11,053 nt of DNA. Origin: a virus. Lineage: Duplodnaviria; Heunggongvirae; Uroviricota; Caudoviricetes. The notes below the pieces were generated by a model. That model was given only the letters and a program-made list of their open reading frames with translations. It was not told the DNA's origin and did no database searches. Made by a program: the position numbers and the translations under genes. The DNA lies in IMG/VR virus record IMGVR_UViG_2585427766_000020, positions 1 through 11,053 of that record; one strand, 5' to 3'. Shown one piece after another: positions 1-11,053 of the stretch (position 1 is the first letter of the stretch; each line of letters starts with the position of its first letter).

Positions 1-273
1 CCGACTGCGGCCTGAGTTTTTTAAGTGACGTAAAATCGTGTTGAGGCCAACGCCCATAATGCGGGCAGTTGCCCGGCATCCAACGCCATTCATGGCCATA
101 TCAATGATTTTCTGGTGCGTACCGGGTTGAGAAGCGGTGTAAGTGAACTGCAGTTGCCATGTTTTACGGCAGTGAGAGCAGAGATAGCGCTGATGTCCGG
201 CGGTGCTTTTGCCGTTACGCACCACCCCGTCAGTAGCTGAACAGGAGGGACAGCTGATAGAAACAGAAGCCAC
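1..273 (-). CDS. insA: IS1 InsA (transposition regulator), 91 codons; stop codon lies just outside the window
   Basis: Minus-strand translation from GTG at 271-273 gives [18 protein letters not shown]...[12 protein letters not shown], matching InsA as I remember it. The 90-302 ORF in the supplied track is a different frame and is not InsA. Confidence 0.88.
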
Positions 274-301
274 TGGAGCACCTCAAAAACACCATCATAC
301 A

Positions 302-1096
302 CTAAATCAGTAAGTTGGCAGCATCACCTGAAAACGCTTTGTGGATTTTACCCATTTCTTCGACTTTTGCAGCACGCAGTTGATCCATTACTTTGTCATA
401 AGAGAATCCAGAAGAGTAGATACGATACCCTTTCAGAAACTTTTCATGCAGACGCTGAATATTGTCCAGTAAATAAGCGAATACTAGAGGTGAATCAATT
501 CCATCACTAACTGCTTGGATACTTTCAATCAGAATATCTAGCTTCTGATCCTTATGGGTATCATCATTGAAACAAGCTATAAGGTTATCAAGATACTCTC
601 TTTGCAAATTTTGTACATTTTCTGCAGCGAAGTGCGGTAATAGCTTGATAACTTCTTTTTTCAGAAAAACTAACTGACAAGTTGAGTTATCAAAGTAGGC
701 CGCGGCCTCTTTTAGCAGGTTAACGAACTCGAGAATCTTCCGGTAGTTGCTGATGAAAACGGGGATATCTTCATCATCATTACGAAACTTTGTTTCTAGG
801 ATGAAGTAATTAGCTGGCTCAAGGCACTGATGCTTTGGAGCATTTAGCAATTTTTCATGGGTGGAAAACACAAGTCCCAGTCCACTCCGTGGTGACGTCA
901 CACGTAGGATGATCGTGTTACCTGGAGCGATAGTGCCTGTATCAATAGAAAGACCATATTCACGAGGATCATCAAGCAAAGTATCAACCAGATCACAATC
1001 GGACTGATCTAAGAGCAACAGCGAACCGACACGAAACCCCTCTTGGAATTCCATACGACGATACAGATCTGTCAGCATCTCAAATGAAATCGCCAC
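302..1096 (-). CDS. Hypothetical protein, second gene of the YejK-like operon; C-terminus truncated by IS1 (last 8 codons GDAANLLI + stop are encoded by the IS1 repeat)
   Basis: GTG start at 1094-1096 with GAGG Shine-Dalgarno 7 nt upstream, 2-nt gap to the upstream gene's stop (translational coupling). Low GC. No domain recognisable by eye. 302-328 is IS1 sequence. Confidence 0.7.
   Translation of the reverse strand: MAISFEMLTDLYRRMEFQEGFRVGSLLLLDQSDCDLVDTLLDDPREYGLSIDTGTIAPGNTIILRVTSPRSGLGLVFSTHEKLLNAPKHQCLEPANYFILETKFRNDDEDIPVFISNYRKILEFVNLLKEAAAYFDNSTCQLVFLKKEVIKLLPHFAAENVQNLQREYLDNLIACFNDDTHKDQKLDILIESIQAVSDGIDSPLVFAYLLDNIQRLHEKFLKGYRIYSSGFSYDKVMDQLRAAKVEEMGKIHKAFSGDAANLLI
306..328 (-). 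repeat. IS1 terminal inverted repeat (insA-proximal end, 23 bp)
   Basis: Direct read: atcagtaagttggcagcatcacc on the + strand, the reverse complement of the IS1 IR. Confidence 0.9.
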
Positions 1097-1098
1097 GA

Positions 1099-2106
1099 TT
1101 AAACCTCAGTCATCCACATTTCCCTAAATTCTTCAGGTACATTACGTAGGGTGATAATATTTGTTTCCGGATCATAATCAATATAGCCTTCAGTTTTCCC
1201 TTCCCGGTCAAACTTAAGTTCCCAATATTTAGACTTGCCTTTAAAAGATACCAGAGCCCGAATGACTCGACCATCAGGAACGAAGCCATCCGATAACTCC
1301 AACTCTTCAGCAGCAAGTTTACCAGATAACTCCTCGGGAGCCTGGGGCCAAATGGCATTAACAAGGGTTTCAAGACTAAGTGGTTCACCAGCCTTACTTA
1401 GTGCATGTAAGTGTTCAAACGCACTCTTAAGAAATGCATCTTTTTCAGCGCCGTCAAGTCCTTTCTCTGCCGCAAATGCTTTTAAAACGTCACGTAACTT
1501 TTCAGACTCTCGTTTGGCGATTAAGACATCATTACAGCCGAGGAACTGTTTAAAATAGTTTGAAACATTACCTTGCCCCTTAAGAAAACTGATATAGCGC
1601 TCTGCGCCACTTTCCCACGCGGTTAAGTCAATGCGCCCAGCCATACGCAGCTTAGCAATATCAAGATAGGTACTATCTTGGATGTTAAAATCATCTGTGA
1701 CAGTGGATCCAATGGTAGCGCTTACAATAGCTATCAACAGGTGTTCATTGTGTCCTATCACGATATTTGCAAAAAGAACATAACCACCAGTAGCCATGTT
1801 TTCTCGCTGAGAACGTTCCGTCAGGTGATGCATCATTCGGCAGGAACTTTGGTAGAAATCATCAACACCTTCGAGAAAGTCCCCAGCCATTCGTTCCATA
1901 GGATAGTTATCCGTATCGCCTTCAAAATAGCCATAACCTTTACCTGTGCGTCCTGCATATTTTGCACAAATATCGTTTATAAGGCGCTGGGAGGCTTCAG
2001 TAACTAGACCTTCTTCAGGACTCAATCTCTCAGAAGCGTCTCCATTTTGTTGTTTGTCTAAAATGTGAACTACAACGTGTTTAACTTCAATGGTCTGCTC
2101 AGACAT
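1099..2106 (-). CDS. YejK/NdpA-family (NA37) nucleoid-associated protein homolog, 335 aa, mobile-element-borne divergent copy
   Basis: Same length as E. coli YejK (335 aa). Core TYLDIAKLRMAGRIDLTAWESGAERYISFLKG matches the remembered YejK block [20 protein letters not shown]...RYLTFLKG; C-terminal YIDYDPETNIITL resembles IFWDPATDTLTI. SD AAGGTGGA 6 nt upstream of ATG. AT-rich codon usage unlike the neighbouring phage genes. Confidence 0.8.
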   Translation of the reverse strand: MSEQTIEVKHVVVHILDKQQNGDASERLSPEEGLVTEASQRLINDICAKYAGRTGKGYGYFEGDTDNYPMERMAGDFLEGVDDFYQSSCRMMHHLTERSQRENMATGGYVLFANIVIGHNEHLLIAIVSATIGSTVTDDFNIQDSTYLDIAKLRMAGRIDLTAWESGAERYISFLKGQGNVSNYFKQFLGCNDVLIAKRESEKLRDVLKAFAAEKGLDGAEKDAFLKSAFEHLHALSKAGEPLSLETLVNAIWPQAPEELSGKLAAEELELSDGFVPDGRVIRALVSFKGKSKYWELKFDREGKTEGYIDYDPETNIITLRNVPEEFREMWMTEV

Positions 2107-2176
2107 TAGCTATCCACCTTATTTTTTATTGCTTAATGGCAAATAATTTCTGCTATATGTTCTCGTTAGGAACACA

Positions 2177-2584
2177 TTAACCCACATTTTTTAACCGCTC
2201 AATCGTTGCGGATAATTCCTTCAGTTGTTTTTCCATCTCAATCACACGCTGTTTTTCTTCAGCGCCTCGCATGAGATCTCGCCGAACCTCAGGATCTAAC
2301 TGGTTTAGAAGTTCAAGCATTTTAAGGTCTGACGGGCTGAATTGATGTTGTGTTGGTACAGCAACAATTTCTTTAGATGGAATATGTTCTTTACCGGTAA
2401 GTAGCCAATCGATCGATACACCCAAATGGGTGCTTAGCGCAACAAGAGCCTCTGCGTTTGGTTCTCTCTCTCCACGCAAATAGTTTTGAAGTGAGCGATA
2501 TGGAATTTTTGATAAGTTAGATAATGCCTTTATTGTCATGCCATTAGCATCCATCACTTCACGCAATCTCTCTTTTGTACTCAT
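2177..2584 (-). CDS. Phage repressor, XRE/CI-type HTH DNA-binding protein (135 aa) with coiled-coil C-terminal half and no S24 peptidase domain
   Basis: MSTKERLREVMDANGMTIKALSNLSKIPYRSLQNYLRGEREPNAEALVALSTHLGVSIDWLL is a typical HTH_XRE fold signature. Leftward, divergent from the early operon. ATG at 2582-2584 chosen over the 2680 start, which would overlap the rightward gene and promoter. Confidence 0.8.
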   Translation of the reverse strand: MSTKERLREVMDANGMTIKALSNLSKIPYRSLQNYLRGEREPNAEALVALSTHLGVSIDWLLTGKEHIPSKEIVAVPTQHQFSPSDLKMLELLNQLDPEVRRDLMRGAEEKQRVIEMEKQLKELSATIERLKNVG

Positions 2585-2600
2585 TTGAACATATCTCAAT

Positions 2601-2628
2601 TTGACACACTCATTTGGGTGTGTACAAT
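2601..2628 (+). promoter_or_regulatory. Sigma70-type early promoter for the rightward operon: TTGACA (2601-2606), 16-bp spacer, TACAAT (2623-2628)
   Basis: Near-consensus hexamers read directly, about 45 bp upstream of the Cro/Ner-like start. Confidence 0.55.
2604..2623. promoter_or_regulatory. Candidate repressor operator: inverted repeat ACACAC-N8-GTGTGT inside the early promoter spacer
   Basis: Perfect 6-bp arms read directly; lies between -35 and -10 where a repressor would occlude RNA polymerase. Confidence 0.45.
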
Positions 2629-2672
2629 AGACCCAATAGAGTACATCATAACCTAACAGGAACACGGTGCAT

Positions 2673-2897
2673 ATGAACAAACAACAAGTTCGGGCACGGC
2701 TGGTTGAACGAGGCAGTAGCTTGCGCCAGTTCGCGCTTAACGCGGGCTATGAACCACGAACAGTCACCCAGGCAGTCAGTCGCTGGGCTGGTAAAAGTGA
2801 ACTACCTCGCGGTCGTTTGACTTATCGGATTTTGCGAGATCTATCGGTTGCAATAGGTAAAGAAGTTACCCCCGGTATCCTTAAGGAGGCGTCATGA
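2673..2897 (+). CDS. Cro/Ner-like small DNA-binding protein (about 74 aa)
   Basis: First rightward gene after the switch. RLVERGSSLRQFALNAGYEPRTVTQAVS resembles the Mu Ner HTH region in pattern. ATG 2673 preferred; GTG 2667 is an alternative. Stop overlaps the next start (ATGA at 2894-2897). Confidence 0.6.
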   Translation: MNKQQVRARLVERGSSLRQFALNAGYEPRTVTQAVSRWAGKSELPRGRLTYRILRDLSVAIGKEVTPGILKEAS

Positions 2898-3202
2898 ATA
2901 AACCAAATACATCAAGCTCAGGTACCCGTATTTTGCGCGTTCTTAAGGCCTTACGTGGCCACGCTTTGAACGGTGTTTCTAACGGGGAACTAGCGGTTGC
3001 ACTGCACGAATCACCGGCAAACATCAACCGGGCACTTAACACGCTCATTGAAGAAGGGTTGGCTCTGAAACTAGAAAACGGGCGTTTCGCACCAGGCATC
3101 CAGTTGCTGCAGATCGCCATGGCCCACAGTAACGAGATGGCACGTGCACAGGATCGCATTAACGAAATCAACCAACGTGTTATTTCAGGTAGTCGTTTGT
3201 AA
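2894..3202 (+). CDS. Winged-helix HTH DNA-binding protein (102 aa), hypothetical
   Basis: Strong SD AAGGAGG at 2883-2889. ILRVLKALRGHALNGVSNGELAVALHESPANINRALNTLIEEGLA looks like a MarR/IclR-type wHTH. Confidence 0.6.
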   Translation: MNKPNTSSSGTRILRVLKALRGHALNGVSNGELAVALHESPANINRALNTLIEEGLALKLENGRFAPGIQLLQIAMAHSNEMARAQDRINEINQRVISGSRL

Positions 3203-3212
3203 GGAGTAATCA

Positions 3213-4124
3213 ATGGGACGCACCAAATCACCGGTTAGCACTGAACTGAACGTCGAGGTACCGCTGTCGGATGATCTCAATGTCAGTCTAAACGCCATGA
3301 CACAGCATCGCATGGAAATCATGCAACAGTTCGGCGATGGTCTGCCCTATGAGCGCGATCGTGTTGTCCATGAGGCACGCTTTTATATGGCACAGAGCGC
3401 TGAGGCCATGCTGGAGGCAGGTAAGCGGCTGATAATCCTTAAGGAAAATGAACCACACGGGGAGTTTATAAAGATTCTTGAAAGTGAGTTGGGGCTGGCA
3501 TACCGGACATCTGTGAGAATGATGCAAGCATCGACAAAATACTTATCCCCGGCGCTGAAACCAAATGTGCCAACGTTGGCACATTTGGGAAAAGCCAAAC
3601 TTTTCGAATTAATGACAGAAGACGACGAAGAGCTTGCCGAACTGGCCGACGGCGGCACAGTTGCCGGCCTGACGCTTGACGACGTTGATCGCATGTCAGT
3701 ACGTGAATTGCGTCAGGCCCTGCGCGAAGCGCGCGAAACCAACGCAGCACAACAGCGCGTACTCGCTGACAAAAATGAAAAAATAGACTCACTCTCCACC
3801 AGACTGGAGAAGAAATCCCGTATTCAGCCGCCTGAGCCTGATGAAGAGGTTAAGAAGCTGCGGGCGGAAGTGACAGCATTAGCGGTTGAGGCGGAATCTG
3901 CTATCGCCGTTCGACTGTCCAGCGCTTTTGAGACGCTGTGCGCATATTGTGCTGAAAACATGATTGATACCCCCAGAGACTTCATGGCAGGCCTGGTCTG
4001 TCAACTGGAAAGCACAGCGCGTAGCCTGCGCTCCACATTTGACCTGCCGGATGAGCCAACAGGCAATGCCGCGCCTTCATGGCTGACTGAGCCGACGCCA
4101 CAGATTAACGGGCTGGAGGCATAA
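3213..4124 (+). CDS. Hypothetical coiled-coil protein (303 aa) located between the regulators and the transposase
   Basis: SD AAGGAG at 3201-3206. Long intact ORF in the operon; C-terminal half has heptad-like charged repeats. No family confidently recognised. Confidence 0.6.
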   Translation: MGRTKSPVSTELNVEVPLSDDLNVSLNAMTQHRMEIMQQFGDGLPYERDRVVHEARFYMAQSAEAMLEAGKRLIILKENEPHGEFIKILESELGLAYRTSVRMMQASTKYLSPALKPNVPTLAHLGKAKLFELMTEDDEELAELADGGTVAGLTLDDVDRMSVRELRQALREARETNAAQQRVLADKNEKIDSLSTRLEKKSRIQPPEPDEEVKKLRAEVTALAVEAESAIAVRLSSAFETLCAYCAENMIDTPRDFMAGLVCQLESTARSLRSTFDLPDEPTGNAAPSWLTEPTPQINGLEA

Positions 4125-4127
4125 CCA

Positions 4128-5897
4128 ATGAATGCTGCCCTGACTGAACGACTGGTTTATGTCGCCCGCGCGGCACGTGACGCGGGGCATGGTAAACGCG
4201 GTGCAATATACGACGCTGCCTGTGCTGAACTTGGCATGTCCCGCGCCACTCTGCTGCGCAGGCTGAAGGAGGTCTCTGTGACTGATAAACGCAAAAAACG
4301 CGCTGATGCCGGACGCAGCGCCCTGACCCGCGACGAAGCCGCGCTGATATCTGCCACACTGCGTGAGGCCACCCGCAAGAACGGTAAGCGTCTCTATTCC
4401 ATCGCGGATGCAGTGGAAACCCTGCGGGCTAACGGCTTTATCTCCGCAGGCAGAACAGATGAAACCACCGGTGAGTTTTTCCCGTTGTCCGAAGATGCCA
4501 TCAGTCGTGCCCTGCGTAACTATGGCCTGCACCCGGAACAACTGGATGCTCCTGCGCCGCATACCGAAGTGGCCAGTCTGCATCCCAATCATGTCTGGCA
4601 GATTGATGCCTCGCTCTGCACGCTTTACTACCTGAGCAATGGACACAAAGGGCTGCAGGTGATGGACAGCGCGAAGTTCTACAAGAACAAACCCGCTAAC
4701 CTTGCCCGTATCGCCAGTGACCGCGTGTGGAGTTACGAGATTACCGACCATGCCAGCGGCTGGATTTACGTTGAGTATGTGACGGGTGCGGAATCCGGTG
4801 AGAACCTGTGTTCTGTGCTTATCAACGCCATGCAGGAGCGTGGCGGCGCAGACGTGCTGCACGGCGTGCCAAAAATACTCTATCTCGACCCCGGTTCGGC
4901 AAACACCGCGGGTATGACGAAAAACATGTGCCGCTCACTGGGCATTGACCTGATAGCGCACAAGCCGCATAACGCCCGCGCCACCGGACAGGTGGAAAAG
5001 GCGCGTGACATTATCGAACGCAAGCTGGAGCCGGGTCTGAAGTTCCGGCCGGTTCACAGTCTGGAAGAACTCAACGCGCTGGCCGCGAAATGGCGCAGCC
5101 ACTTTAACGCCACGGCTGTTCACAGCCGCCACGGTAAAACCCGCACGGATATCTGGCTGAAGATTACTGCTGAGCAGCTGAAAAAAGCGCCTTCCGTTGA
5201 GGTATGTCGTGAACTGGCTGTGGCGGCACCAGAACTCCGCAAAGTCACGCCAAAACTTCGTGTCTCGTTCCGGGGCACTGAATTTGACGTATCAACGGTA
5301 CCGGGCGTACTGGTCGGTGAAAAACTGATGATTACCCGTAACCCGTGGCGCAGCGATGTGGCACAGGTGGTTCTGACCGGTGAGGACGGCCACGAGACGT
5401 TCTTCCTGGTCGAAGAGGTCAGAAAGAACGAGTTTGGCTTTGCTGAAGGCGCGGCGGTATTTGGCGAAAGTTACAAAGCCCTGCCGGAAACCCCGGCGCA
5501 GATGGCGGCAAAAGAAACCGAAGCGCTGGTCACCGGTACAGACAACGCCGCAGATGCAGCTGCCGCACGCAAGGCGAAGGCGCTGCCGTTCGGCGGGCGG
5601 CTTGACCCGTATAAACATATTGATGACGCCACACTTCCGGCCTATATGCCGAAGCGAGGTCAGGCCTCTGACGTACGCGGACCGCGCACTGAACAGCGTC
5701 CCATGACTCATGTGGAGGCCGCGAAAGCCCTGCGCGGGAAGTTCAGCGCCAACGGCCTTACCTGGACGCCGGAACATTACCGCCAGTTAACGGCACAGTA
5801 CCCGGACGGCGTACCGGAAGCCGCACTGGATGAAGTCATGGCCACGCTGACCACGCCGGCCCGCAGCAGTGTTATCAGCATTGTTAACGGCAACTGA
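4128..5897 (+). CDS. DDE transposase of a transposable phage (Mu A-like, rve/integrase-core family), 589 aa
   Basis: SD GGAGG at 4115-4119. HPNHVWQIDASLCTLYY is typical of the first catalytic-Asp region of rve-type transposases. Followed by a B-like ATPase and by gam, gemA-like and mor. Confidence 0.8.
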   Translation: MNAALTERLVYVARAARDAGHGKRGAIYDAACAELGMSRATLLRRLKEVSVTDKRKKRADAGRSALTRDEAALISATLREATRKNGKRLYSIADAVETLRANGFISAGRTDETTGEFFPLSEDAISRALRNYGLHPEQLDAPAPHTEVASLHPNHVWQIDASLCTLYYLSNGHKGLQVMDSAKFYKNKPANLARIASDRVWSYEITDHASGWIYVEYVTGAESGENLCSVLINAMQERGGADVLHGVPKILYLDPGSANTAGMTKNMCRSLGIDLIAHKPHNARATGQVEKARDIIERKLEPGLKFRPVHSLEELNALAAKWRSHFNATAVHSRHGKTRTDIWLKITAEQLKKAPSVEVCRELAVAAPELRKVTPKLRVSFRGTEFDVSTVPGVLVGEKLMITRNPWRSDVAQVVLTGEDGHETFFLVEEVRKNEFGFAEGAAVFGESYKALPETPAQMAAKETEALVTGTDNAADAAAARKAKALPFGGRLDPYKHIDDATLPAYMPKRGQASDVRGPRTEQRPMTHVEAAKALRGKFSANGLTWTPEHYRQLTAQYPDGVPEAALDEVMATLTTPARSSVISIVNGN

Positions 5898-5907
5898 GGA
5901 GGAAAAC

Positions 5908-7074
5908 ATGCTGGTACTGAAGCAGCAACTGAAAGAGGCCCGTATTTCACAGGCGGTGGTGGCGAGAGCTGTCGATGTTTCTGAGGCCACGCTGGCCCAG
6001 ATTGTGAATCATAACGCGTGGCCCCGCACCAGCCCCGGAGAAGTGCGCCGGCGTCTTGCGTCCTGGCTGGAAAGTCAGGGGATTGATACAGCGAAGAGTT
6101 TTGATGCTGTACAGGGCGCGGCCACGCCCCGTACATCGGGTACCACAGATAAAACGAGCCTCAGTGAGGAAGAGAATATGTTACTCAAAAAACAGGTGTT
6201 ATTTCCAGCAACCAAAAAAGCGTTTGGTCTTTTCCGTGACCCGTTCGCCGACGAAGCCATGCAGGGTTCTGATGATGTGTTCACCACCCCGGACATTCGC
6301 TACGTGCGTGAGGCGTTGTACCAGACAGCACGTCATGGTGGGTTTATGGCCGTCATCGGTGAGTCCGGTGCGGGTAAATCCACGCTGCGCCGTGACCTGA
6401 CTGAACGTATCAACCGCGAGAATGCGCCAGTGATTGTTATCGAGCCATACATCATCGCTATGGAAGACAACGATGTGAAAGGGAAAACTCTGAAGGCAGC
6501 AGCGATTGCCGAAGCCATTATCAGTACCATCGCACCACTGGAAAGCATCAGACGCAGTCAGGACGCCCGCTTTCGCCAGTTGCATCGCGTCCTGAAAGAC
6601 AGCAGCCAGGCGGGGTTCAGCCACGTTCTGGTGATTGAGGAGGCCCACAGTCTGCCCATTCCGACACTGAAACACCTCAAACGCTTTTTTGAGCTGGAGT
6701 CCGGTTTCAAAAAACTGCTGTCCATCGTGCTAATTGGTCAGCCGGAACTGGCGACAAAACTGTCTGAACGCAATATGGAAGTCCGTGAAGTCGTTCAGCG
6801 CTGTGAGGTGGTCGAACTTCTGCCTCTGGACAATAACCTTGAAGAATTTCTGACGTTCAAACTGCAACGGGCCGGTAAACAACTGACGGACATTATGGAC
6901 GCCAGCGCAGTGGATGCCATACGTGCCCGCCTGAGCAATCCGGGAAGTCATCGTAAAAATATGGTCAGCCTGCTGTATCCGCTGGCCGTCAGTAACCTGG
7001 TAATAGCCGCCATGAATCTGGCTGCTGAAATCGGGGTTCCACAGGTCAACGCTGACGTTGTCAAAGGGGTTTAA
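5908..7074 (+). CDS. AAA+ ATPase, transposition target-DNA activator (Mu B-like/TniB-like), 388 aa
   Basis: SD GAGGAGG at 5896-5902, ATG 5908. N-terminal HTH-like segment, then Walker A GESGAGKST and Walker B-like HVLVIEEAH. Sits immediately after the transposase as in Mu A-B. Confidence 0.8.
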   Translation: MLVLKQQLKEARISQAVVARAVDVSEATLAQIVNHNAWPRTSPGEVRRRLASWLESQGIDTAKSFDAVQGAATPRTSGTTDKTSLSEEENMLLKKQVLFPATKKAFGLFRDPFADEAMQGSDDVFTTPDIRYVREALYQTARHGGFMAVIGESGAGKSTLRRDLTERINRENAPVIVIEPYIIAMEDNDVKGKTLKAAAIAEAIISTIAPLESIRRSQDARFRQLHRVLKDSSQAGFSHVLVIEEAHSLPIPTLKHLKRFFELESGFKKLLSIVLIGQPELATKLSERNMEVREVVQRCEVVELLPLDNNLEEFLTFKLQRAGKQLTDIMDASAVDAIRARLSNPGSHRKNMVSLLYPLAVSNLVIAAMNLAAEIGVPQVNADVVKGV

Positions 7075-7076
7075 TA

Positions 7077-7346
7077 ATGAAATCCACCACAGGTATCAAC
7101 CAGCAAATCAGCAAAGTGCAGTCAGCCATTATGGCGCTTAAGGCGACGAACACGGATGTACAAAGCATCACCATCAGGGGGAACAAACCTGTCATCCGCG
7201 TTTCCCGGAGTGCGCATTGCATGCGCATGCTTGAGCAGGGAAAGGCCTGTTATCTGTATACCGGACATGACCACAGGGGATATTTCCGTCAGGGCGTTTT
7301 CGAACTGCACGGCTGTCGCGTCGTGTGGCCGGAATCTTTGTGGTAA
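7077..7346 (+). CDS. Hypothetical early protein (89 aa)
   Basis: Intact ORF 2 nt after the B-like stop, same strand and operon. No family recognised. Confidence 0.5.
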   Translation: MKSTTGINQQISKVQSAIMALKATNTDVQSITIRGNKPVIRVSRSAHCMRMLEQGKACYLYTGHDHRGYFRQGVFELHGCRVVWPESLW

Positions 7347-7373
7347 TCAGCACAACCGGAGAAATCATAAAAA

Positions 7374-7904
7374 ATGGCAAAAAGTACAAAAGGTGCAAAA
7401 CGTATCAAGGCCGCAGCAGCACTCTGGGTGCCGGGGACACGTGAAGAGGTCATTGAGGGCATCAGACTGCTCGGTGACGCACACCGTGAACTGGTCAGGG
7501 CTGAAACAGAAATGAATGACGCCATTGGCGATATCACCGCACGTTATGCCCCGCTCACCGAGAGCCTGAAAAAACGCATGGCCGAACTGCAGTCCGGTAT
7601 TCAGACATGGTGTGAGGCACACCGTGATGAACTGACCGGCAACGGGAAGGTGAAGTTCGCTAACCTCACCACCGGCGAGGTGCAGTGGCGAAACCGTCCG
7701 CCATCAGTCAGTATCCGTGGGGCGGATAATGTTATTGAATTACTGAGACGTCTGGGGCTTGAGCGCTTTATCCGTGTAAAGGAGGAAATAAATAAAGACG
7801 CTATCCTGAATGAAAAGGACGCCGTGAAAAATATTCCCGGTATTACCATAAAAAGTGATATTGAGGATTTTTCAATAATTCCTTTTGAGCAGGATGTGCA
7901 GTAA
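7374..7904 (+). CDS. gam: Host-nuclease inhibitor protein Gam (Mu Gam family; binds DNA ends, protects against RecBCD)
   Basis: 176 aa. Blocks ETEMNDAI, WCEA.RDELT, PPSVSIRG and GIT.KS.IEDFSIIPFEQ match Mu Gam (174 aa) as I remember it. Confidence 0.9.
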   Translation: MAKSTKGAKRIKAAAALWVPGTREEVIEGIRLLGDAHRELVRAETEMNDAIGDITARYAPLTESLKKRMAELQSGIQTWCEAHRDELTGNGKVKFANLTTGEVQWRNRPPSVSIRGADNVIELLRRLGLERFIRVKEEINKDAILNEKDAVKNIPGITIKSDIEDFSIIPFEQDVQ

Positions 7905-8001
7905 ACACACCACGTTAATTATTTAATAAAAACATTTTCTTTTTTATTCCGGCGTCAGCGCCGTGGGCTTCTGCACGCCGGAAACAGAGGAGAATTAAAT
8001 T

Positions 8002-8196
8002 ATGATATTTAAATGTATTCAGTGCGAGAGGGATATAACAGCCCTGCGTTTTCACAGCGCCATCGCCGTGATGTCCGGTAAATACCACATCCCTGCGGTA
8101 CGCGTCACCCTGGTCTGCCCGTACTGCAGCCAGCATTTTTCGGCAGACGTGCCCGTCATGGAATTCTCCCGCCCTGACAGGGAGGACTCGCAATGA
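8002..8196 (+). CDS. Small zinc-ribbon-like protein (64 aa), hypothetical
   Basis: Two CxxC pairs (CIQC...CPYC). SD GAGGAG at 7987-7992. Stop overlaps the next start. Confidence 0.5.
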   Translation: MIFKCIQCERDITALRFHSAIAVMSGKYHIPAVRVTLVCPYCSQHFSADVPVMEFSRPDREDSQ

Positions 8197-8465
8197 TTAC
8201 CCCACAGGAAGCACGACAGCGCACCCGAACCCTTGTTGAACACTATGTCAACGAGTGTGAATGCCGCGACCTCACCGATGTGAAGCACGTCCTGACGGCG
8301 CTAATCAGCATGACCGCTCAGGCCATTGTGGCGACCAACGGAAAGGCGGCTGCCCTGCAGGTACTGGTGAACACACTAACCCACACGGCAGCGCATGAGG
8401 TGCCGTACCGGATGGAAACCACTGCAGAAGGCGGTCTGCACATCACCGTCAGCCGGAATCACTGA
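8193..8465 (+). CDS. Hypothetical protein (90 aa)
   Basis: ATGA start/stop overlap with the upstream gene; GC-rich coding-like composition. No family recognised. Confidence 0.5.
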   Translation: MITPQEARQRTRTLVEHYVNECECRDLTDVKHVLTALISMTAQAIVATNGKAAALQVLVNTLTHTAAHEVPYRMETTAEGGLHITVSRNH

Positions 8466-8474
8466 GGGCGCAGC

Positions 8475-8780
8475 ATGACACGGTACACCATACTCACCCG
8501 CACCGCCCTCTACCGTCTGGCCCTGCAGCGTTTCGGGCCGGACGCACAGGCCCTGAAACTGACAGAAGAGGCCGCTGAACTGGCAGCCTGTGCTGCCCGC
8601 AACCTGAACGGACAGGGCAGTGAAAGTGACCTCGCGGCAGAGCTGGCAGACGTGGAAATCATGACAGAGCAGTTGCGCCTTCAGGGGATGGACCGGCTGA
8701 TTGACTTCCACAAACAGAAAAAACTGGAACGCCTTGCCGCACGGCTGGGCGTCATGTACACCGGAGATACTGAACAATGA
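8475..8780 (+). CDS. MazG-like nucleotide pyrophosphohydrolase family protein (101 aa)
   Basis: LKLTEEAAELAACAARNL...ESDLAAELADVEIM resembles the EExxE / ELADV helical signature of small MazG-like all-alpha NTP pyrophosphatases. Assignment from motif pattern only. Confidence 0.6.
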   Translation: MTRYTILTRTALYRLALQRFGPDAQALKLTEEAAELAACAARNLNGQGSESDLAAELADVEIMTEQLRLQGMDRLIDFHKQKKLERLAARLGVMYTGDTEQ

Positions 8781-9460
8781 CAGACTTGGATAAACACATT
8801 GAAAAACTGAAAAAGTTGCTGGCGCTGGCAGCATCCGGCAACCCGTATGAGGCTGCTCTGGCACTGCGCCGCGCCCGTAAACTGATGGATGTTCACGGCA
8901 TCACACATTCCGACATTGCCATGAGTGATATTGATGAAACCATCAGTCATTACTGGCCGACAGGCAGTCTCCGTCCACCGCGCTACATGCTGGGCCTGAT
9001 GAACATCATCCGCGAGGCATTTGGTGTTAACTCCATAATTCACCCCGGCACATATCCGGGTGTGGGGTTCTACGGCAACCGGGAACGGGCCGCACTGGCT
9101 GCGTACACCTGGGAAGTGCTGGCCCGCCAGCTGAAAAAGGCGCGTCAGCAGTATATCAGCGCACAGAACAAAAGAATAAAAACTGCCACCCGTACCAGCC
9201 GTGGTGACCAGTTTGCTGAAGGCTGGGTGCTGGCCGTTATCAGTGAAATACAGTCCTTCGCCCTGACCGATGACGAACGTGAACTGATGCAGCAGTGGCT
9301 GGAACATAAATACCCGCAGACGCAAACCACCAGGGCGCGTAAACCGGGAAGAAGCCGCAATGGCGACGCCTCGCGCTATGCGGGGTTTCGTGAAGGGCAG
9401 AACGTCAGACTGCACCGCCCGGTCAGTGGGCAGGAACAACAGAAACTGGAGGCCAGATGA
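8777..9460 (+). CDS. DUF2786-like phage protein (227 aa)
   Basis: N-terminal IEKLKKLLALAASGNPYEAALALRRARKLM is the characteristic DUF2786 motif, common in Mu-like and other phages. ATGA overlap with the upstream stop. Confidence 0.65.
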   Translation: MTDLDKHIEKLKKLLALAASGNPYEAALALRRARKLMDVHGITHSDIAMSDIDETISHYWPTGSLRPPRYMLGLMNIIREAFGVNSIIHPGTYPGVGFYGNRERAALAAYTWEVLARQLKKARQQYISAQNKRIKTATRTSRGDQFAEGWVLAVISEIQSFALTDDERELMQQWLEHKYPQTQTTRARKPGRSRNGDASRYAGFREGQNVRLHRPVSGQEQQKLEAR

Positions 9461-9687
9461 TTACGCTATCAGGTAACAGCCGGAAATTAAAAGCCTGCCG
9501 AATATCTGCCAGATACCTTTTTGCCCGCGCCTTTTTTAAGAACGTAAGGCCGGGGATCACAATTGGTGTTATTGCCGGACGCGAACAGGTTGAAAAATAC
9601 ATGTCAGGTGCATGGTGGAATAACGACCCTGTCATTGCTGCCCGTAATATTCATATCAGTTGGGGGGATATTCAGAATGACGGCTGA
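9457..9687 (+). CDS. Hypothetical protein (76 aa)
   Basis: ATGA overlap with upstream gene; in-operon ORF. Confidence 0.45.
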   Translation: MITLSGNSRKLKACRISARYLFARAFFKNVRPGITIGVIAGREQVEKYMSGAWWNNDPVIAARNIHISWGDIQNDG

Positions 9688-9892
9688 ATCTGTTGTATGT
9701 GCCCTGTTCTGGTATTGTTTTGTCGGTTGGTGTACTGCTGAACTGCACCGCCGTTCAGGGTTTTATTCACGTTACAGTGGTGCCGGCTACTGGATTAGCT
9801 GGTCGGTGATGTTCCTGTGCTGGCCTGTGGCGCTTCCTTTATATGTCGATTATATCGGTGGCGCAGGTAAAAGGAGCAACGATGATGACTAA
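9677..9892 (+). CDS. Small membrane protein with two predicted transmembrane segments (about 71 aa)
   Basis: Internal ATG at 9677 of the 9563-9892 ORF chosen to minimise overlap. Hydrophobic stretches VVCALFWYCFVGWC and YWISWSVMFLCWPVALPLYV. Confidence 0.45.
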   Translation: MTAESVVCALFWYCFVGWCTAELHRRSGFYSRYSGAGYWISWSVMFLCWPVALPLYVDYIGGAGKRSNDDD

Positions 9893-10334
9893 ACAACGTC
9901 TTATCCAGCTCATTCATATTGCCCGTAATGAACTGGGTATGGATGAAGACACCTACCGCCAGATGTTACAGGGGCTGACCGGTAAAGCCTCAACCAAAGG
10001 AATGGATACCACACAACTAAACTGCGTGCTGGAATCCATGAAAAGGAAAGGCTTTCGCGTTAAGCCTGCCAGAAAAGCCAGCTCCGGTTTACCGCTGGAT
10101 AACCATCCGCAGTCCAGGAAAATCCGTGCGCTATGGCTTGAAATGGCTGCTGCCGGCATTGTTCGTGACCGTTCAGAAAATGCATTAGCGCGGTGGATCA
10201 AGCGGGAAACGGGCATCAGCGCCCTGCGCTGGCTCAATACTGAACAGGCAAGCAGTGTTATTGAGAAACTGAAGAAGTGGCAGCACAGAGCTGCGGGAGT
10301 AAAACATGAGCGACCTGAATCAGTTTCGAAGTAA
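9882..10334 (+). CDS. gemA: GemA/gp16-like protein (Mu-like prophage gp16 family, DUF1018)
   Basis: SD AAGGAG at 9871-9876, ATG 9882. RLIQLIHIARNELGMDEDTYRQMLQGLTGKAS matches the remembered N-terminal signature of the Mu gp16/GemA family. Sits immediately upstream of mor as in Mu. Confidence 0.7.
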   Translation: MMTKQRLIQLIHIARNELGMDEDTYRQMLQGLTGKASTKGMDTTQLNCVLESMKRKGFRVKPARKASSGLPLDNHPQSRKIRALWLEMAAAGIVRDRSENALARWIKRETGISALRWLNTEQASSVIEKLKKWQHRAAGVKHERPESVSK

Positions 10335-10695
10335 AGGGCCGGAACTCCTGGTGGAACTGGCACAGCATACCTCTGAGACCGTTCGCGAGATTATTGATAT
10401 TGAGCCCGCAATTGCCGACCAGATTGGTCAGGCCGTCGCGAACCGCATGATGCAGGTCTGGGGCGGGCAAAACGTTTATTTCCCGATGGGCATGGTATGG
10501 AAGGTCAGTCAGCGCGACCGGGAAATCTTCAGGGAGTTTAACGGACGTAACCACCATGAACTGGCCCGCAAATTTGGTGTTTCGCTTCAGTGGGTCTACA
10601 GCGTGGTTAAGCGGGTAAGAAAAGAAGAACTGGATCGGATGCAGGGCAAGCTATTTGCTGATGAACCCGATGTAGATACGGAGAAAAAAGAGTAA
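10306..10695 (+). CDS. mor: Middle operon regulator Mor (Mor/C family transcription activator), 129 aa
   Basis: Same length as Mu Mor. VYFP and FNGRNHHELARKFGVSLQWVYSVVKRVRK match the Mor/C-family conserved FNGRN...Y and HTH region. Overlaps the gemA-like 3' end by 29 nt. Confidence 0.85.
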   Translation: MSDLNQFRSKGPELLVELAQHTSETVREIIDIEPAIADQIGQAVANRMMQVWGGQNVYFPMGMVWKVSQRDREIFREFNGRNHHELARKFGVSLQWVYSVVKRVRKEELDRMQGKLFADEPDVDTEKKE

Positions 10696-10724
10696 TATCT
10701 GCAATCAGGCTGGAGCGAGTTCTG

Positions 10725-11053
<329 letters not shown>

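Follow-up and report, generated by a model that had tools for sequence, protein, structure and literature searches.

A putative multi-operator immunity switch with an operator-like site inside the repressor gene of a BcepMu-like prophage of Escherichia coli

The DNA analysed here, hereafter the window, consists of 11,053 nucleotides of a tailed-phage sequence (IMG/VR record IMGVR_UViG_2585427766_000020, positions 1-11,053) and is part of a BcepMu-like transposable prophage of Escherichia coli. Nucleotides 2585-2672 form the gap between the repressor gene and the early operon of this phage. Judging from comparisons with related loci, the gap and the adjoining part of the repressor gene probably constitute a multi-operator immunity switch. 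This would comprise the early promoter Pe, a palindromic operator in the Pe spacer (O1), two flanking operator-like sites (O2 and O3), and a distal operator-like site (OD) lying within the repressor gene (Table 1). We tentatively propose that the DNA encoding the DNA-binding domain of the repressor also carries the site for that domain (OD), that this holds in at least three unrelated operator specificities, and that domain and sites make up a self-contained cassette of about 300 bp in which an OD bridge would set both repression and autoregulation.

Switch regions of relatives were taken from annotated E. coli genomes and phages, 61 viral contigs, 80 species-representative genomes and 35 metagenome contigs; individual loci are denoted below by L numbers. 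About 12 clearly distinct switches have the same repressor DNA-binding domain as the window, with repressor identity down to ~42%, and are termed type 1. A preceding sequence-only reading had described 2585-2672 as a compact lysogeny switch in which two face-to-face, overlapping promoters share one palindromic operator. All the motifs that it named are present at the positions given, and its repressor start codon is the one annotated in RefSeq. The assignment as a lysogeny switch of a transposable prophage also holds, with a helix-turn-helix (HTH_3) repressor on the left and a Ner-like gene followed by the transposition operon on the right.

Table 1. Positions of the switch elements and early genes in the window
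Feature	Positions	Strand	Description
Repressor gene	2177-2584	-	135 aa; ATG at 2584, same start in RefSeq
Immunity cassette	2335-2638		~300 bp; OD, DNA-binding-domain and linker codons, O3, Pe, O1, left half of O2
OD, distal operator-like site	2419-2432		CACCCAAATGGGTG; perfect palindrome inside repressor gene, codons 51-56
O3, weaker operator-like site	2578-2591		TACTCATTTGAACA; overlaps repressor start codon (CAT 2582-2584); third-best matrix match in window
GAGA tract	2594-2597	-	weak Shine-Dalgarno-like tract, 9 nt upstream of repressor ATG
Leftward promoter of the sequence-only reading	2599-2627	-	TTGTAC 2627-2622, 17 nt, TCAAAT 2604-2599; judged a chance match
Pe, early (lytic/transposition) promoter	2601-2628	+	TTGACA 2601-2606, 16 nt, TACAAT 2623-2628; predicted start ~2635
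O1, main operator	2604-2623		in Pe spacer; 20-bp palindrome with 8/10 pairs; core CACTCATTTGGGTG at 2607-2620
O2, operator-like site	2630-2643		GACCCAATAGAGTA; covers predicted Pe start; centre 23 bp from O1; fourth-best matrix match in window
Candidate convergent repressor -10	2645-2650	-	TATGAT; predicted start ~2638, leader ~54 nt; weak
Ner/Cro-like small DNA-binding protein gene	2673-2897	+	74 aa, first early gene; phrog_8503, E = 5e-35
Early operon under Pe	2894-7074	+	the four genes below
IclR-like helix-turn-helix protein gene	2894-3202	+	
DUF3102 protein gene	3213-4124	+	
rve transposase gene	4128-5897	+	
AAA_22 transposition ATPase gene	5869/5908-7074	+	

The early promoter and its operators

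Pe matches the promoter hexamers at 11 of 12 positions and is the sole match of at least 10/12 on either strand of the 11-kb window; a random 88-nt spacer reaches 11/12 with P = 0.00075. Its hexamers are kept in all type-1 relatives examined, down to the most diverged repressors, and its -35 element consistently lies 15-18 nt from the repressor ATG. In BcepMu (L150), TTGACA-17-CATACT is found 19 nt from the ATG of the gp17 repressor. The rightward promoter proposed by the sequence-only reading is thus upheld. The same part of BcepMu (742-870) also has an inverted repeat, GATTACC-N17-GGTAATC, bracketing the -35 element, and the small minus-strand gene gp14 lies antisense near gp15 and gp16.

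The dyad in the Pe spacer consists of ACACAC (2604-2609) and GTGTGT (2618-2623) separated by 8 nt. Of random 88-mers, 17% contain a perfect 6+6 inverted repeat whose arms are at most 12 nt apart, and the extended palindrome has a chance probability of 2.7% in random 88-mers. Taken alone, the dyad is statistically weak, and it is validated by comparison with relatives. The type-1 Pe spacer always contains a palindrome of the form yAC(C/T)C(A/G)-ww-TG(G/A)GT(G/A), and in close relatives a paired change of A..T to G..C at 2612/2615 preserves the symmetry of O1. Three heteroimmune E. coli relatives have palindromes of their own in the Pe spacer (TGCTCATAATTATGAGCA in L008, GAGAAC-aata-GTTCTC in L005 and TTATTCAtttTGAATAA in L035), and in a fourth, L007, the spacer holds a weak dyad only. 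Since type-1 and heteroimmune relatives carry their own spacer palindromes, an operator within the Pe spacer is, by sequence comparison, a family trait. The earlier proposal that the dyad is an operator is therefore supported, in that the putative operator changes together with the DNA-binding domain of the repressor. Pe and O1 are very probably real as early promoter and operator.

Further sites were sought with a position matrix built from eleven distinct O1 sites, with which 12 whole loci were scanned. Relative to the repressor ATG, high-ranking matches recur at four places: +23 (O1; 12/12 loci), +46 (O2; 11/12, L038 being the exception), -165 (OD; 10/12) and -6 (O3; 7/12). When the O1 of the window itself was excluded from the matrix and the ~22,000 positions of the window were ranked, the top four matches were OD (15.9 bits), O1 (14.8 bits), O3 (11.9 bits) and O2 (11.7 bits), followed by a match of 9.3 bits. 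In random 11-kb sequence, 0.09 matches of at least 15 bits and 1.4 matches of at least 11 bits are expected.

The O3 position is held by a near-full site in L023 (TGCTCATTCGGGTG, 16.1 bits), and in several relatives the left half of O3 tracks the left half of O1. In the heteroimmune types 2 and 3, the repressor ATG likewise lies within a copy of the operator of that type. Two points weigh against O2 and O3 as operators: matches of at least 11 bits, like theirs, arise by chance in random 11-kb sequence, such that position and conservation carry the case for them, and O3 overlaps coding sequence and the translation start, so that its conservation is partly protein-driven. Overall, binding of the repressor to O2 and O3 is likely from these comparisons. 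The view that one dimer at a single dyad controls both promoters is accordingly too simple, as there are about four operator-like sites, including one at the repressor ATG and one inside the repressor gene 188 bp away.

Two side observations concern the operators. A distant marine metagenome contig (L176) contains four copies of another palindrome, mACCTTwTwAGGTk, upstream of a repressor homolog; these are placed close to the ATG, before the -35 element, within the Pe spacer and at +1, and the gene itself contains none. In the window, the 8-mer ATATGTTC occurs as two plus-strand copies and one reverse complement (2155-2162, 2382-2389 and 2587-2594), the reverse complement being within the right half of O3.

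The intragenic site and the exchangeable cassette

OD is the best match to the O1 matrix in the whole window, scoring above O1 itself. Its centre lies 188 bp from that of O1, 159 bp from that of O3 and 211 bp from that of O2. Ten of the 11 related loci scanned have a high-scoring match at the OD position; L039 has none among its top matches.

As OD lies in a coding region, codon use was compared in 14 diverged repressor genes. Within OD, Leu54 is encoded by TTG in 13/13, Gly55 by GGT in 10/11 and Ile56 by ATA in 9/10, and Thr52 is encoded by ACC or ACT only, which agrees with the C/T-degenerate position of the operator. At other conserved columns, six leucines use 4-6 codons (majority at most 0.54) and glycines use 3-4 codons. 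In the metagenomic loci L174 and L175, Leu54 is replaced by Met (ATG), the motif nTGGGT is kept, and OD is a perfect palindrome, TACTCATATGGGTA. OD is thus held by synonymous-codon constraint.

Heteroimmune phages provide a parallel in which both domain and operator are unrelated to those of type 1. In type 2 (operator consensus TTATTCAnnnTGAATAA), a four-site spacing is found in nine loci with no more than 2-3 mismatches: relative to O1, sites lie at -175/-174, -29/-28, 0 and +23 in 8/8 loci with an assignable O1, and the ninth (L074) has the same spacing. The far site is inside the repressor gene, and the -29/-28 site covers the repressor ATG. In type 3 (TGCTCATAATTATGAGCA), the O3 left half at the ATG equals the O1 left half, and a two-armed copy is located 228 bp away inside the repressor gene. 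Four type-2 loci (L033, L035, L036 and L075) also have a fifth operator-like site beyond the repressor gene, ~796-802 bp to the left of O1 (e.g. TTATTCGATATAAATAA; 2-3 mismatches).

Alternatively, OD might be a by-product of the conserved peptide T-H-L-G-V/I, with its codons fixed by translation (a rare-codon pause) or by common ancestry. In E. coli, TTG and ATA are codons of low usage, and since OD coincides with a conserved protein motif, some of its conservation is protein-driven. Also, replacement of Gly55 by Asn (AAC) in several relatives destroys the right half of OD, GGC is used at codon 55 in L012, L159 and L163, and no clear site occupies this position in the distant L039 and L176. 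These points weigh against OD as an operator. Yet OD outscores O1 on a matrix derived from the O1 of other phages, and conserved Leu and Gly columns nearby show synonymous change to saturation. A by-product is also at odds with the retention of the DNA motif where Met substitutes for Leu54, and with the presence in types 2 and 3 of an operator copy of the respective type 175-228 bp from O1 in the repressor gene. The by-product explanation is therefore rather unlikely, and OD is, on balance of these comparisons, probably a functional operator.

The change of Gly55 GGT to Asn AAC requires three base changes and is found in two separate lineages (L013, L019, L039, L071 and L155). It turns the right half of OD into TTGAACATA, which is identical to the right half of O3, as if there were two alternative half-site states.

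The helical phasing of OD is suggestive only with respect to looping. The OD-O3 distances in the three types correspond to 15.1, 13.9 and 18.9 helical turns, which are all near integers. The OD-O1 distances correspond to 17.9, 16.7 and 21.7 turns, and the non-integer values in types 2 and 3 speak against phasing. Looping between OD and the promoter-proximal cluster is a possibility that we put forward with reserve.

Alignment of the window with the type-2 locus L035 reveals the extent of exchange: identity is ~90% up to ~2330-2345 and resumes at 2639, and the sequences between are unrelated. Type-1 and type-2 phages have in common the C-terminal domain of the repressor as well as the Ner-like and IclR-like genes. 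The N-terminal domain of the repressor is the sole coding sequence that changes together with the operators. As only the codons for this domain are swapped with the operators, we infer that O1, O3, OD and the left half of O2 are bound by the repressor.

Binding of the palindromes by another protein, for instance a host factor or one of the Ner-like and IclR-like early proteins, is very improbable, given that O1, O3, OD and the left half of O2 covary with the repressor DNA-binding domain, whereas the host and the genes for both of these early proteins are unchanged. The left half of O2 becomes TTATTCA in type-2 phages. In favour of another protein, the right half of O2, GAGTAC, and the sequence to its right do not vary between immunity types and accompany the Ner-like gene. 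This half and the downstream sequence may well be a Ner-type site serving the Ner-like protein, or may serve a promoter.

Because the flanks are shared, immunity would be exchangeable in a single recombination event. The ~300-bp cassette would hold both the reader (the domain) and all the operators that it reads.

The repressor and its transcription

The repressor comprises an HTH_3 domain of the XRE/Cro-CI kind (residues 1-65), a linker (66-83) and a helical C-terminal domain with a heptad pattern (84-132). It belongs to the HTH_3/XRE phage repressors (PF01381, E = 3.9e-11, 43.3 bits against a cutoff of 23), and PHROG transcriptional repressor families match it at E ~1e-15. Its N-terminal sequence M-x-I-K-E-R-L is conserved and homology ends upstream of the ATG. 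In an AlphaFold single-sequence model (mean predicted local distance difference test score, 72.8), five N-terminal helices are predicted at 3-13, 18-25, 29-36, 44-54 and 58-63, followed by helices at 84-94 and 98-132, and the linker at 64-83 is disordered. Hydrophobic residues of the last helix at 117/121/124/128/131/134 have heptad spacing, and the modelled helix would suit a coiled-coil oligomerisation module. Searching PDB sequences yielded weak Xre-family matches alone (ImmR of ICEBs1 and DdrO), with no match for the C-terminal domain. The repressor is modular: its C-terminal helical domain (~82-135) has ~90% DNA identity with repressors bearing an unrelated N-terminal domain (L004, L026, L035 and L074).

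A Pfam scan found HTH_3 as the sole match and no Peptidase_S24 domain in the repressor, in agreement with the sequence-only reading, which sets it apart from the self-cleaving LexA/lambda-CI group. In two relatives, L040 and L078, the same DNA-binding domain is fused to Peptidase_S24 (PF00717; E = 6e-20 and 4e-22). The further suggestion that prophage induction does not proceed by RecA-stimulated, LexA-type self-cleavage stands as an inference from the absence of this domain.

The location of the repressor promoter is less clear than that of Pe. In the earlier proposal, Pe and a leftward promoter, TTGTAC-17-TCAAAT, fully overlap, the -10 of each coinciding with the -35 of its partner, with one dyad in both spacers so that one dimer would block both, and with a near-leaderless mRNA starting at ~2592. 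The promoters as drawn are not face-to-face, as they would fire apart (~2635 rightward and ~2592 leftward), that is, back-to-back and fully overlapping. The leftward hexamers do exist; TACAAT in place of TATAAT in Pe yields the TTG on the opposite strand and is kept in most close relatives, and overlapping pC2/pE promoters have been predicted in B3-family phages (PMC9936078). Overlapping divergent promoters combined with looping are also announced, for plasmid pLS20, in the title of a paper. Yet the leftward match is only 8/12 with C at the near-invariant -11 A, it was not called by the promoter scan, and the window holds 147 promoter matches of at least 8/12. Its score is 5.2 with an approximate sigma-70 matrix, and 26% of random 100-nt pieces of the window reach this value.

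Conservation likewise argues against the leftward promoter. Its -10 element is TCAAAT in close relatives only and becomes TCAAAC in L014 and TCAACG in L023, L024, L038, L039 and L040, and its -35 element is lost wherever the Pe -10 differs from TACAAT, including all six of these loci, while Pe and the operators persist. In addition, with one operator for both, the repression of a very strong promoter would be coupled to that of the weak promoter of the repressor itself. This arrangement is therefore quite unlikely, and the leftward match is at chance level.

Translation signals bear on the same question. The statement of the sequence-only reading that the repressor lacks a Shine-Dalgarno sequence is partly right: there is no canonical one before the ATG, but the GAGA tract is present at 2597-2594 and aligns with AGGAG or GGAGA in the distant relatives L076, L170 and L175; a transcript from the leftward promoter would exclude it. 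An RNA from A2592 would begin with the AUG of a mini-open reading frame, ATG TTC AAA TGA (2581-2592, minus strand), the stop codon of which overlaps the repressor ATG. This form occurs only in the window and L024, and it is probably incidental. A different leaderless promoter, with a -10 element at -12 to -7, was considered and rejected as a general model: it fits L024 (TAATAT) and L073 (TAATGT), reads AGATAT with G at -11 in the window, and is absent from L023 and L039.

The best-conserved candidate for the repressor promoter lies on the far side of O2 and would be convergent with Pe. A TAnnnT hexamer whose end lies 60-62 nt before the repressor ATG is kept among relatives as TATGAT, TATTGT, TATCAT, TATTAT, TAATAT or TAGACT, with L040 as an exception. 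The -10 at 2650-2645 is the top minus-strand match in the window, L012, L016, L023, L024 and L073, and the second in L014. Between the Pe and convergent -10 hexamers lie 16 bp, which contain O2, and the predicted starts are ~3 bp apart. In the L005 type, the repressor ATG is inside the Pe -10 element, and therefore the repressor promoter there must lie beyond Pe, in the convergent orientation, which also disfavours the overlapping divergent arrangement in at least one relative.

Several points count against the convergent candidate. Its score is 6.5 in the window, a value reached by 8% of random 100-mers (9.5 in L024 and L073), no conserved -35 element was found for it among the relatives compared, and convergent transcription would have to pass through repressor-bound O2 and O1. 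Convergence of the repressor promoter with Pe is thus a conceivable arrangement, to which we lean only tentatively from the sequence. Folding of the putative 79-nt leader gave no structure beyond that of shuffled sequences (z = 0.13).

A third possibility is a distal promoter far to the right as the main source of repressor transcripts, which would run antisense to the Ner-like gene and those after it, with no functional repressor promoter in 2585-2672. In a lysogen of phage Fc02, the transposase of which is 57% identical to that of the window, RNA-seq shows a ~1,700-nt transcript from a distal promoter, pC1, which enters the repressor gene after crossing ner and gene 10 in antisense orientation (PMC9936078). 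Consistent with such a source, no intergenic minus-strand promoter in the window rises above chance. Unlike in Fc02, however, no convincing minus-strand promoter was found in 2673-4300, the best being TTGGTT-17-TATTTT at 3564-3536 (score 8.3). A 116-aa antisense open reading frame at 2881-3231 (minus strand) over the IclR-like gene resembles olg1/olg2 of Fc02, but neither its length nor its position is conserved in L002-L008. A distal promoter as the main source is accordingly unlikely. A promoter-like sequence, TTGAGA-18-AATTAT, is also present on the minus strand at 2241-2212, within the 3' part of the repressor gene.

The proposed switch, its context and known systems

In the multi-operator switch favoured here, Pe would drive the Ner-like gene and the transposition operon rightward. 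The repressor, translated from the ATG at 2584, would shut Pe off by binding O1 in the Pe spacer, probably also binding the weaker O2 at the Pe start, and O3 on the start codon would allow negative autoregulation. Repressor dimers joined via the heptad-bearing C-terminal domain might bridge OD and the promoter-proximal cluster, and such bridging would add cooperativity and sharpen the repression of Pe. If the repressor promoter is convergent, polymerase on the strong Pe would keep it shut off as long as Pe is not blocked by repressor, which would amount to indirect self-activation.

The assignment to BcepMu-like phages comes from the early genes. The transposase shares 98% identity with its counterpart in Escherichia phage PhiKM, 68.7% (over 98% of its length) with that in BcepMu and 57% with those in the Pseudomonas B3/Fc02 group. 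The rve transposase and AAA ATPase are related to gp09 and gp08 of BcepMu, and the core order (repressor, small helix-turn-helix protein, IclR-like regulator, DUF3102/gp10, transposase, ATPase) is common to both, with the additional genes gp15, gp14, gp13 and gp11 interspersed in BcepMu. These identities and the core gene order therefore identify the window as a BcepMu-like transposable phage. Several complete E. coli chromosomes match positions 2100-3300 with 100% identity, and 630 of 5,426 complete E. coli genomes contain related sequence. Gam is also encoded in the window.

The 74-aa first early protein falls under the cutoffs of Pfam HTH_35 (E = 0.004, 17.6 bits; cutoff 25) and NCBIfam BcepMu_gp16 (29.1 bits; cutoff 34). 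Its gene may start at GTG 2667 instead of the annotated ATG 2673, with AGGA at 2658-2661, 5 nt before the GTG; in L014 and similar relatives, 6 nt are missing and the ATG is at the GTG position. Scans of 2000-3300 gave no Rfam match (E up to 1) and no terminator. Positions 1-327 are the end of an IS1 copy that splits a 401-aa prophage gene. In NZ_CP086627, to which the window is identical from position 328 on, this gene is intact. Relatives differ in the cargo that separates the repressor gene from the DNA adenine methylase gene (302-2106 in the window; L002-L008). In the window it comprises an NA37 nucleoid-associated protein gene (1099-2106) and the IS1-truncated gene, and in other phages it comprises unrelated open reading frames.

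Literature searches on the BcepMu, PhiKM and phiE255 switches found no study of a BcepMu-group control region. The present analysis offers a testable map consisting of one strong early promoter, four putative repressor sites spaced 29, 23 and ~160-210 bp, and a swap-ready immunity cassette, and points to a regulatory site maintained inside coding sequence by synonymous-codon selection. If OD loops, the region would be a compact, genetically tractable model of action at a distance in a transposable phage and would account for the origin of heteroimmune variants; if it does not, this would be an ordinary phage switch.

A related switch for comparison is that of the B3-family phage Fc02. RNA-seq of the Fc02 lysogen shows the repressor being transcribed from a promoter convergent with pE (PMC9936078). 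The intergenic region between repressor and ner is 106 bp in Fc02, and a proximal repressor promoter is predicted to overlap pE; the promoter positions are mostly predictions, and operators were not analysed in that work (PMC9936078).

The region resembles that of Mu in that the repressor gene is leftward and the rightward early operon starts with a small, putatively Ner-type protein, followed by transposase and ATPase. As in Mu, there appear to be several repressor operators and the repressor is presumably not cleaved by the RecA pathway. Unlike in Mu, the repressor fold is HTH_3 rather than winged helix, and the switch is not near the prophage end, with lysis genes to its left. The Mu repressor and the N terminus of MuA share a DNA-binding domain, which is the basis of the enhancer role of the Mu operator. 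That operator is designated O/E, for operator/enhancer (PMC3820752). The sequence-only reading had drawn an analogy to this enhancer. BLASTP comparison of the repressor and the transposase of the window gave no similarity (best E, 1.0), and the transposase matches the phage transposase profile phrog_310 only from position 129, the first 128 positions being missing. Because of these two features, a Mu-type enhancer role is unsupported here.

Like lambda OR, the region has a divergent repressor gene, graded operator-like sites, one of which would be autoregulating, a distant site that might loop, and a start region poor in Shine-Dalgarno signals. Lambda CI differs in having an S24 domain with RecA-stimulated self-cleavage, and PR and PRM are back-to-back and non-overlapping. 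Unlike for the leaderless cI mRNA, the repressor ATG here is preceded by a conserved Shine-Dalgarno-like tract, which argues against a leaderless start.

Phage 186 has convergent promoters, and its distal operators, at a distance of ~300 bp, aid repression as well as relieving the lysogenic promoter (PMC3675496). As in 186 and P2, operator-like sites in the window cluster at a strong lytic promoter and are accompanied by a distal one, here OD at 159-211 bp from the cluster, and the best-conserved candidate for the repressor promoter is weak and convergent with Pe, reading through it into the repressor gene. The convergent starts of 186 are reportedly 62 bp apart, compared with ~3 bp for the candidate starts here. 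The 135-aa HTH_3 repressor with its short helical C-terminal domain also differs from the 14-mer wheel of 186 CI. Moreover, one distal site was found here, in contrast to FL and FR of 186, which aid pR repression and modulate pL, and convergence and looping are suggested here from sequence.

Intragenic auxiliary operators located 100-400 bp from a main operator, acting by looping and retained in spite of their coding context, are present in lac (O2 in lacZ) and gal (OI in galE). Unlike these, OD lies in the gene of the repressor itself, among the codons for the DNA-binding domain, and not in a regulated structural gene. Taken as a whole, the arrangement is of a known kind, a multi-operator phage switch with a distal auxiliary operator.

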